A DNA stretch of 64,000 nt, taken from the NCBI GenBank assembly GCA_964016885.1, contig OZ024740.1, forward strand, positions 229,400,001 to 229,464,000. Direction: 5' to 3'. This document shows, piece by piece, positions 6,516 through 36,214 of this stretch. The stretch comes from Eledone cirrhosa. Lineage: Eukaryota. Position 1 is the stretch's first letter; every line of letters begins with the position of its first letter. The notes beneath the pieces are model-generated. The model was not told the origin of the DNA. It saw nothing but the letters and a program-made list of their open reading frames with translations, and did no database searches. A program made the translations under genes and the position numbers.

Positions 6516-6693
6516 CAAAATAAGATGCTGAGGTTACATGTATCGTTTAATCATAATAATTATGAGAACGATTCCCTGTAACTTGGAGTTACTGTAGGTT
6601 CACCCGGGTGAGCACTCGATGTTTAAATTCACTTCATTGTCGAGATGTAGAACTAGACAGCGTGTATTATAGTGAAATATATAACCATTACAA

Positions 6694-6780
6694 GGGATCT
6701 GAAGAGCCGCGGATTACAGAGTCGGGTGAGATCGATACAGATCGAACCTTGAGCTGATCAGTGGCGAAACGCGCGTCACC
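6694..6780 (+). ncRNA. type I hammerhead ribozyme motif
   Basis: CTGAAGA gccgc..gtggc GAAA c-gcgc-g TC; palindromic loop GCGC; GUC triplet; helix I weak. Confidence 0.65.
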
Positions 6781-7064
6781 AACCAATAAACGTAATGAAG
6801 GAGTAAGCAATCGTCCTTGTTATTTTATTTCACTATATATATATACACACACATATATGTATATATTTATTAAAATAACAGATTAAAGTTTAAGCAAAGA
6901 ATCACTGCTTTCACCCTTAACGGGATCTTCTGAAACTCAATTTTAATAAATATTTGCTCTACGGTTTTATATATTTTATATATATATTATCCTTACCGAA
7001 CCCTCTTCAGATTTTAGTCTTCTCATTTATTATTATCACTCTCCCTCTCTCTCTCCCCCCGCTC

Positions 7065-7223
<159 letters not shown>

Positions 7224-7701
7224 TGCTGAAAATTGAAGTAAGTGACATTGTAAGTGACTTTTACTTTAAAACAATAGCGTAAGCTCTTCAAAATGCTTTT
7301 AATTAAGCATACAGTGTATTGCAAAATACACTATATATACATTCATATATATATCGCTATTTCAGAGCAACAATTCTAATTTTCAATTTTTGCTGGACCG
7401 GCAACCGCGCTGTATAATCAGTTCCTGATTATTACTAGGATTCTATAAGAATCCAACATTCATAATTTTTGGCAAACAGGGGGGGGTAGTGAGCTTTGAT
7501 AAGTACCAACAAGTACGAAACAGAGCTCTGTCAGCTTATCTCCCCTGTTTGCTGAAAATTGAAGTAAGTGACATTGTCGCTACTTTAAAACAATAGCGTA
7601 AGGTCTTCAAAATGCTTTTATTTAAGCATACAGTGTATTGTAAAATACACTATATATACATTAATATATATATATCGCTGTTTCAGAGCACCAATTCTAA
7701 T
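7224..7701 (+). mobile_element. retrozyme-like partial tandem element (~326-nt unit, ~1.5 copies)
   Basis: 7224-7380 is repeated at 7550-7701 with a hammerhead between the copies; flanked by (GA)n/(TA)n; no ORF. Confidence 0.7.
7472..7552 (+). ncRNA. hammerhead ribozyme, U3-A8 core variant
   Basis: tgagct TTGATAA gtac-caacaa-gtac GAAA cag-agct-ctg TC agctta; all three helices pair; helix I is extended by gcaaacagggg/cccctgtttgc. Confidence 0.85.
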
Positions 7702-34181: not shown

Positions 34182-35410
34182 ACTATGATAATAATAATTG
34201 TTTCTATTTTAGGCACAAGGCCAGCAAATAGCCAGTACATTACTGGTACTTTATTTTATCGAGCCCGTAAGGACGAAAGGCAAAGCTAACCTCGGCGGTA
34301 TTTGAACTCAGACCATAAAGGGACGAAACTATGCCGTAAAGCATGGCGTCCGACTCTACCGATATTGCCAATACTATGATAATAATAATTGTTTCTACTT
34401 TAGGCACAAGGCCAGCAAATAGCCAGTACATTACTGGTACTTTATTTTATCGAGCCCGTAAGGACGAAAGGCAAAGCTAACCTCGGCGGTATTTGAACTC
34501 AGACCATAAAGGGACGAAACTATGCCGTAAAGCATGGCGTCCGACTCTACCAATATTGCCAATACTATGATAATAATAATTGTTTCTACTTTAGGCACAA
34601 GGCCAGCAAATATCCAGTACATTACTGGTACTTTATTTTATCGACCCCGTAAGTTAACCTCGGCGGGATTTGAACTCAGACTGTAAAGGGACGAAACTAT
34701 GCCGTAAAGCATGGCGTCCGACTCTACCAATATTGCCAATACTATGATAATAATAATTGTTTCTACTTTAGGCACAAGGCCAGCAATTACCCAGTACATT
34801 ACTGGTACTTTATTTTATCGACCCCCCTAAGTTAACCTCGGCGGCATTTGAACTCAGACTGTAAAGGGACGTAACTATGCTAGAAAGTATGGCGCCCAAC
34901 CCTCTAGCGATACTGCCAAATGATTTCTGATTTAGGCACAAGGCCAACAATTTGGGGGGGGGGATGGGAAAGTCGATTAAATCGACCTCAGTACGTTACT
35001 GGTACTTTATTTTATGAACCCTGTAAGAATGAAAGGTAAACGTAATTTCAGTGAGATTTGACCTCAAAGCGCAAAGGGATATAATAATTGTTTCTACTTT
35101 AGGCACAAAGCCAACAATTTGGTGGGGGGGGGGGGTCGATTAAATTGATTCAGTATGATACTGGTATTTTATTTTATCAACCTCGTAAGAATGAAAGGTA
35201 AAGTTAACCTCGGCGGGATTTGAACTCAGAACACAAAGGTGTGTAATAATGGTTTCTTATATAGGCACAAGGCCAGCAATTTTGGGGGAGGGTAAGATCG
35301 ATTAAATCGATCCCAGTGCGTGACTGGTACTTTATTTTATCGACCCCCGTAAGGATGAAAGGCAAAGTTAACCTCGGCGGGATTTGAACTGGGAACGCAA
35401 AGGAGTGTAA
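34182..35410 (-). mobile_element. tandem SINE array: 4 young units plus 3 older-subfamily units
   Basis: period 191 bp, then ~179 bp after a shared deletion; spacer actatgataataataat; older units carry a G-run segment. Confidence 0.9.
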
Positions 35411-36214
35411 TAATAAAAGTAATAAGAATATTAAACGAAAATTTATAGATTTGTTATGTGTTGTCTTTTATTGGTGACGGAGGCCCAATATATTAGGCAT
35501 AATAGAAAACAATTGACTCGATCCCAGACCTTATCCACTTACCGAATGAGGTGGAACTTGTCAAATCGGAACAAAGGAACAATGTTTCTATTGGTCTTTC
35601 CATTGTTGATATTATCTACTGGTCACAACTTCTGGCAGAAGAAGCAACATGAAATAAAGTGTCTTGCTCAAGGACATAACGCATCGCCCAGTCCGGAAAT
35701 CGAACTCGTAGCCTCACGATTGCGAATCCAATTCTATAACCACAAAACCACGTAAAGGCCCTCAACTCTCGCAGGAGTCGTAGAGGTACCTACCTGACAC
35801 ACGGCGTTTATTGAGCATTTAAACCTAACGAAGCCCATCTTTCTCTGTCTGAACACAGTCGATTTTTCCACGTATAGATAACAGTTTGCTTCGCGTAAAT
35901 CCGAGTACTAAGGAAGGTATACGACTGTTTAGCTTGTGCTTTATATAATATAACATATTTACCTCTACGTTTAAATATTGTGGGTTCTTTCTTTAGTGAT
36001 TACAACCTCACATTCAAGCAACAATACACACACACACACTCATTGATCATGCTTTTATATTTATTTTTATTTCATTTCATTTTATTTTGATCATGCTTTA
36101 TTTTTATTTTTATTTTTAATTTCATTCGCACCGTTTCCTCCCACCCCCTTTTCGCTATATGTCTCTCCACCACTCCCCTACACACCCTTTGAACTCTCTT
36201 CCCACACACTTCTC

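Follow-up and report, generated by a model that had tools for sequence, protein, structure and literature searches.

A U3-A8 hammerhead in a retrozyme-type repeat family of Eledone cirrhosa with Penelope-like insertion anatomy

The locus described here raises the question of what kind of element carries a hammerhead ribozyme whose core reads UUGAUAA instead of CUGANGA, and whether this element is an active one. It lies in a window of 64,000 nucleotides (contig OZ024740.1, positions 229,400,001 to 229,464,000; coordinates below are those of the window) from the 3.0-Gb, microsatellite-rich genome of Eledone cirrhosa. We consider it likely that the window holds an old, single-ribozyme copy of a non-coding family with units of 316-322 nt, for which cleavage after a GUC triplet is predicted. 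The RNA of this family would form circles, which a reverse transcriptase-endonuclease of the Neptune type would copy into TA microsatellites. The original prediction of a non-LTR retrozyme agrees with the structure of the family, i.e. short non-coding units in tandem that each carry a single type I hammerhead, and judging from its sequence the family appears to behave like a Penelope passenger. The features of the locus are compiled in Table 1.

Table 1. Features of the retrozyme-type locus in the window
Feature	Position	Strand	Basis
(TA)n/(GA)n microsatellite, 5' flank, likely insertion target	7105-7223	.	family 3' flanks TA-rich in 107/127 arms
5'-truncated upstream partial copy (131 nt), pseudo-LTR-like, with 7-nt insertion and no ribozyme	7224-7354	+	alignment
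Single full-length unit of 320 nt that stops at the main fixed 3' end (short TA run)	7355-7674	+	alignment
27-nt tail (start of next unit) up to the second fixed 3' end, followed by (AT)n	7675-7701	+	alignment
Extended helix I with 11-bp stem 7472-7482/7542-7552	7472-7552	+	sequence, fold
Type I hammerhead motif, helices I-III and core	7490-7538	+	sequence, fold, Rfam alignment
Core UUGAUAA (U3 7496, A8 7501, A9 7502)	7496-7502	+	sequence; family counts
GUC triplet, predicted cleavage after 7532 (C17)	7530-7532	+	sequence; hammerhead consensus

The position of the motif, its helices, the UUGAUAA core, the GUC triplet and the 11-bp extension of helix I were all confirmed from the sequence as originally predicted. 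Helix I pairs 7490-7495 with 7533-7538, helix II consists of GUAC (7503-7506) and GUAC (7513-7516) around a CAACAA loop, and helix III of ACAG (7520-7523) and CUGU (7528-7531) around an AGCU loop; the GAA of the core occupies 7517-7519. U4, G5, A6, A9, G12, A13, A14, the A15.1-U16.1 pair and H17 are all present, and each conserved core position is retained in 113-118 of 118 units (the parser, which tolerated at most one core mismatch, recovered these from 56 of 76 loci). The 86-nt motif folds with z = -7.0 (equally stable shuffles 0/200) and the 326-nt stretch with z = -8.1. Rfam model RF02275 (Hammerhead_HH9) aligned over its full length, including loop 2 and the helix I bulge of the window motif, at 28 bits (E 2e-5 on 161 bases), which is below its gathering threshold of 52 bits; a scan of six family loci, three of them from subfamilies other than that of the window, returned no family at gathering score. 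Rfam microRNA matches near the locus, all below gathering score, were rejected as microsatellite artefacts. Helix III and its loop (7520-7531) form a perfect 12-nt palindrome in the subfamily of the window, and this palindrome recurs, with four bases different, in the GCAU and early GCUU subfamilies (L143, L176). Cleavage as a dimer could be possible with such a helix III.

A partial tandem of ∼326 nt had been claimed for the locus. The partial tandem is real, but the spacing of 326 results from the 7-nt insertion in the upstream copy and the unit itself measures 320 nt. Since the partial copy begins 17 nt beyond the cleavage site, the locus contains only one hammerhead and is therefore unable to release a monomer by itself; a preprint on vertebrate retrozymes (bioRxiv 10.64898/2026.07.22.740005) reserves the term 'active' for at least two consecutive hammerheads, which places the window locus outside that class. 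The two halves of the element are identical at just 142 of 161 columns, indicating an old copy. The longest ATG-started ORF in the unit has 41 aa, and the 64-kb window contains neither a second family copy nor a match to the helper protein described below.

Genome-wide, an exact 28-mer from the 3' part of the unit has 3,942 matches, and the exact 32-nt core of the window has 131 (reversed control 0), with 0 non-U3 versions and 1 non-A8 version in the same exact context. A looser pattern with the GUAC helix identified 975 cores; scored by eye, the first 100 of these listed comprised 88 with U3-A8, 7 with C3-G8, 1 with C3-A8, 1 with U3-G8 and 3 with C8. The C3-G8 pattern has 80 matches, which belong to the unit of the window at 88-90% identity (two alignments). 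A younger branch (GCUU) has 2,085 cores, with U3-A8 in 95 of the first 100 listed, and subfamily E (78-83% identity) combines C3-G8 with U-U at 10.1-11.1 and mostly a GUU triplet. Monomers measure 316-322 nt across the family (306-322 nt in 52 cut-to-cut units). The longest array (L134) comprises 6.5 units in 2,069 nt with intact cores, and since it is 99.95% self-identical, the youngest subfamily has moved recently. The original prediction of an active retrozyme family with a ∼320-nt monomer is supported as to the type of family, its unit length and, for the youngest subfamily, recent movement, but it does not extend to the old window copy with its one ribozyme. The family is present in contigs of three sequencing runs from one sample, which has no bearing on expression. 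As to single subfamilies, the U10.1-U11.1 mismatch is fixed in the subfamily E loci (L234-L263), and an intermediate U3-A8 subfamily (L126, L151, L159, L181, L185, L189) carries one additional A where helix II meets GAA, an unusual insertion for a core, yet this subfamily still amplified. L159 carries U3-G8 in both units.

The 3-8 pair of the hammerhead core has been described (PMC3884650), and the idea that C3U and G8A compensate each other in this pair is supported by our counts: C3-G8 sisters exist, and mixed pairs make up 14 of the 975 cores (7 C3-A8 and 7 U3-G8 genome-wide). The mixed pairs occur on varied loop backgrounds, consistent with decay after insertion. Fixation of the two changes across copies had been proposed as a check, and they are not fixed; C3-G8 copies had been proposed as a refutation, but these copies form sister subfamilies and thereby strengthen the covariation claim. 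U3-A8 had also been called uncommon. In the families counted here, however, most cores are of this type, and natural cases were already published, the first covariation from C3-G8 to U3-A8 in several examples by Perreault et al. (2011, PMC3088659), who cite earlier in vitro work in which such 3-8 pairs were active, and ∼1,300 minimal U3-A8 hammerheads in Cercyon Penelope elements of Schistosoma mansoni (Cervera and de la Pena 2014, PMC4209133).

In a tree of 56 rows, comprising 12 subfamily E rows and a random subsample of the others, every U3-A8 row falls into one clade (100/99) inside the C3-G8 rows. The root was set at the midpoint on the E branch, with E taken as outgroup by distance; 10 long-branch or chimeric rows had been excluded beforehand, two E rows are probably junction chimeras, and the bootstrap stopped short of full settling. 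An unrooted tree without E drew C3-G8 nested in U3-A8, as a reversion would appear, and this reading was given up when the picture reversed on addition of E; the direction of the switch thus depends on the E root. Under the rooting used, the tree shows a single switch from C3-G8 to U3-A8. U3-A8 was then retained in a succession of ever younger subfamilies, while the helices underwent compensatory changes: helix II in the U3-A8 clade runs through GUAC/GUAC, GCAC/GUGC, GCAU/GUGC, GCAU/AUGC, GCUU/AUGC (mismatch) and GCUU/AAGC, and pair 2.1-1.1 goes from U-A to C-G.

The pairing was quantified in 60 copies hand-picked from all subfamilies but E. Hammerhead pairs are formed in 96.0% of 1,662 cells, compared to 90.3% after shuffling, a control which ignores relatedness, and 33-46% after sliding. 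Two-sided changes occur in 9 of 28 pairs, distributed over helices I, II and III and including all four pairs of helix II and pair 3-8 (45 UA, 12 CG, 1 UG, 2 unpaired); this number of pairs was equalled or beaten in 38 of 500 shuffles. Since the 60 rows are related, they stand for a handful of events rather than 60, and the 3-8 switch for a single one. The core positions are constant across subfamilies while helices and loops vary, and pairing-preserving changes around a fixed core are probably the trace expected if selection had kept the ribozyme of the source copies functional.

How the family inserts was deduced from 127 arms at 75 loci, found via 3' segments and not via the core. Loci present twice, arms cut off at an edge and arms ending elsewhere had been removed, so that all 3' ends considered lie within a pre-set span of 73 nt. 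Of the 127 arms, 120 have their 3' end at one of two fixed sites: 63 stop at the main end, ∼140 nt beyond the cut site, while 57 reach the tail end, 27-30 nt further. TA-rich DNA follows the 3' end in 107 of the 127 arms, and target-site duplications are hidden by these TA-microsatellite flanks. Head-to-head inverted pairs occur at 50 of the 75 loci, with the tail confined to one arm in 47 of the 50 pairs. The insertions are 5'-truncated and form partial tandems; 43 of the 127 arms contain more than one unit and 26 span at least two cut sites. Partial tandems, inverted 5'-truncated copies, a tail of 30-40 bp at one end and a (TA)n bias are features of Penelope elements, and in Neptune the bias was tied to the CX2-5CxxC linker (Craig et al., PMC8557442). 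The insertion anatomy of the family matches these features, a point absent from the original prediction. An excess of 5' ends near the cleavage position, which would be a sign of in vivo cleavage, was not supported on replication: a first sample had 12 ends within 0-13 nt versus 5.3 expected (p 0.007, post hoc and with non-independent paired arms), a second sample 1 versus 1.9 expected, and the genome-wide 5' junctions of the young subfamily gave 3 true junctions in 25 matches at the cut site versus 3 in 15 three bases upstream.

A search for GIY-YIG domains yielded 10,597 candidates in the genome, of which 40 loci were examined. One of them (L214:3772-9815, minus strand; G000 C1, ∼145.87 Mb) is a near-intact Neptune-type Penelope element. 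Its ORF of 938 aa combines a reverse transcriptase (RT) domain (E 2e-6, narrowly missing the Pfam cut-off) with a CX4CX2C linker and GIY-YIG, and is flanked by two pseudo-LTRs of 1.06 kb that are 97.8% alike. Each pseudo-LTR holds a minimal hammerhead with a U3-A8 core and a GUA triplet. This core has 11,885 genome matches, with U3-A8 in 99 of the first 100 listed. Like the retrozyme-type family, the element has two 3' ends, and the tails of both end in the identical 7 nt, a short match noticed post hoc among several families. Comparison of the unit with the 40 GIY-YIG loci revealed, among the BLAST matches listed, no homology apart from TA tracts and two family copies that had inserted separately; the partnership is therefore deduced from the anatomy, and on these grounds a Neptune-type element is the likely helper. 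A structure-database search with the helper ORF gave no match. A second Penelope family (L205, L231), with 52-55% protein identity to L214, has a minimal U3-A8 hammerhead-like motif downstream of its ORF, which suggests that U3-A8 may be common among the Neptune elements of this genome.

We propose that tandem source arrays would be transcribed and that neighbouring hammerheads would cut out monomers, with U3-A8 replacing the C3-G8 pair. By likeness to the retrozymes of coral, mussel and axolotl, a host ligase would close these monomers. The Neptune protein would then nick (TA)n and prime at a distance of ∼140 or 166-170 nt on the 3' side of the cleavage site; copying through the re-ligated ribozyme could generate more-than-unit, 5'-truncated and inverted copies. 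The window locus would be a dead-end product of this copying step.

Whether monomer circles are the main template can be judged from multi-unit loci, ten of which were aligned by hand and their shared variants counted by eye and post hoc. In 4 of the 10 (L145, L309, L177, L301) variants are common to both arms at the same unit rank, in 2 they are common to units mainly inside one arm, in 1 all four units carry A9G, and 3 (L313, L310, L191) have private variants only. A monomer template cannot yield rank-shared variants, so some insertions derive from multimers or were homogenised later. About 18 sites are common to at least two units, and 4 of these (A15.1U, U3G, U16.1C, A9G) fall on the 12 conserved core positions versus <1 expected; the units of L309 alternate intact-dead-intact and those of L304 run intact-dead-dead-intact. 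This excess of core-damaging shared sites fits dead units that would have escaped cleavage. It is thus possible, if on balance improbable, that the ribozyme cuts but that copies arise mainly from uncut linear multimeric transcripts or multimer circles rather than from monomer circles. The three loci with private variants only and the homogeneous L134 array with its intact cores speak against this, and shared variants could equally stem from copying between arms, from gene conversion or from a later local duplication. In L145, L309, L304, L174 and L298, unit-shared variants are often ribozyme-damaging (A15.1U, U3G, U16.1C, A9G, G1.1C).

The unit could also be the detached pseudo-LTR of an unsampled autonomous Penelope, spreading with that element or by local DNA amplification. 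In Xenopus, retrozymes of 24 of 57 families match transposable elements, and Penelope accounts for 21 of 22 matches (bioRxiv 10.64898/2026.07.22.740005); moreover, the 40 examined loci stand for 10,597 GIY-YIG candidates. However, the mapped units are preceded on their 5' side by a further unit, by an inverted copy or by unrelated flanking sequence, and the full helix III and long helix I differ from the minimal hammerheads of the Penelope loci, which makes this origin unlikely.

The folding of the window copy deserves a separate consideration. Its minimum-energy fold differs from the hammerhead in that 7491-7498 is paired to 7521-7528, a helix that joins the 5' side of helix I and U3-U4-G5 to the 5' side of helix III and its loop. 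According to ViennaRNA, in which tertiary contacts lie outside the model, the hammerhead fold of the window is 8.2 kcal/mol above the ensemble, compared to 1.3-6.7 kcal/mol in 10 other representatives (1.3-2.0 in two C3-G8 sisters, 3.7-6.7 in the other eight). The window copy is thus predicted to misfold. Placing C3-G8 into the window background raises the predicted cost from 8.2 to 11.2 kcal/mol. Over the 60 copies the competing helix is 82% paired, with 3 two-sided changes; it may be a brake on cutting or merely an inherent liability. Although these values and the missing in vitro cleavage in 8 of 9 Xenopus retrozyme dimers (bioRxiv 10.64898/2026.07.22.740005) are in line with a passive SINE-like passenger whose ribozyme is (nearly) inactive in the window subfamily through sequestration of the core, the better preservation of the hammerhead fold (96%), the fixed core amid changing helices and loops and the descent of younger U3-A8 subfamilies, with further compensatory changes, from that of the window render it a decidedly doubtful explanation. 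A bolder extension of the retrozyme reading, which we offer tentatively and hold to be rather unlikely as a whole, is that the switch from C3-G8 to U3-A8 weakened the competing misfold by ∼3 kcal/mol and let this lineage out-replicate its C3-G8 sisters, with a Neptune helper of the same core and with dead-core units copied as dimer or trimer circles. If true, the evolution of a ribozyme could be followed in real time in this genome, which would also document in vivo cleavage and the circular template proposed for Penelope enzymes.

Non-LTR retrozymes, their circular RNA and a role of Penelope have been proposed or described before (PMC7229834, PMC7761336). Like the metazoan retrozymes of coral, mussel and axolotl (Cervera and de la Pena 2020, PMC7229834), the Eledone family has a non-coding tandem unit in the range of 150-450 bp with one full type I hammerhead, a GC content below 50% and thousands of copies, and Penelope was likewise proposed as helper. 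It differs from them by U3-A8 in most copies counted, no U3-A8 retrozyme being noted in the accessible part of that report, and by insertions that are mostly dispersed, comprise 1.5 units and have inverted arms with the tail on one side. For those retrozymes circular RNA was shown; for the Eledone family it is a prediction. With Schistosoma Cercyon (PMC4209133) it shares a natural U3-A8 pair in a Penelope-linked type I hammerhead, but the Cercyon motifs are minimal and part of autonomous elements, while the motif described here has three full helices, belongs to a non-autonomous unit and shares its genome with a C3-G8 sister lineage. The U3-A8 cases of Perreault et al. (PMC3088659) are, in the accessible part of the report, scattered examples without family history or retroelement context.

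Neptune-clade elements (Craig et al. 2021, PMC8557442) resemble the family in their partial tandems, inverted 5'-truncated copies, one-end tail, (TA)n bias and a hammerhead near the 3' end; in contrast to them, the family is without an ORF, its unit has 320 nt instead of kilobases, and its tail 27-30 nt instead of 30-40. Vertebrate retrozymes were viewed as non-autonomous Penelope derivatives (bioRxiv 10.64898/2026.07.22.740005), i.e. the same partnership, with an amphibian mean unit of 316 bp. There the proposal rests on co-occurrence and pseudo-LTR homology, here on insertion anatomy, with no helper homology found. For the giant squid genome 235 hammerhead-1 matches were reported, with no further description in the accessible text (PMC6962438). 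A search of mainly open-access literature retrieved no full-helix U3-A8 retrozyme and no cephalopod retrozyme family (the supplement of PMC7229834 may list some). Natural U3-A8, non-LTR retrozymes and the Penelope link are each known; their combination was not found reported.

For the families counted, scans for CUGANGA miss most hammerheads, since ∼15,000 cores (975 + 2,085 + 11,885) carry U3-A8 in 88-99% of the listed samples. Since intermediates survive in the genome, the family further provides a natural series of mutants in which the 3-8 pair and the stepwise compensation of helices can be studied, and its insertion anatomy adds independent support for the proposal that Penelope enzymes mobilise animal retrozymes. 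A small young substrate together with a near-intact helper ORF is at hand for testing whether Penelope RT copies circular RNA.

The window contains further repeats. Positions 6577-6845 (plus strand) represent a separate repeat family of ∼270-290 nt with 1,883 candidates, the best matches being 83-91% identical. It includes a C3-G8 type I hammerhead at ∼6695-6782, with helix II extended to ∼65 nt and a palindromic helix III loop, and occurs mostly as single copies with TA-run flanks. We considered this repeat as an autonomous partner and rejected it, as it is a separate family with no longer shared body in 25 loci. Another high-copy repeat lies beside TA runs at ∼6895-7025, and a sequence resembling it borders copies of the retrozyme-type family at L019 and L022. 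Finally, 34182-35414 contains tandem arrays with periods of 162-191 nt that resemble clustered SINE-like repeat copies.
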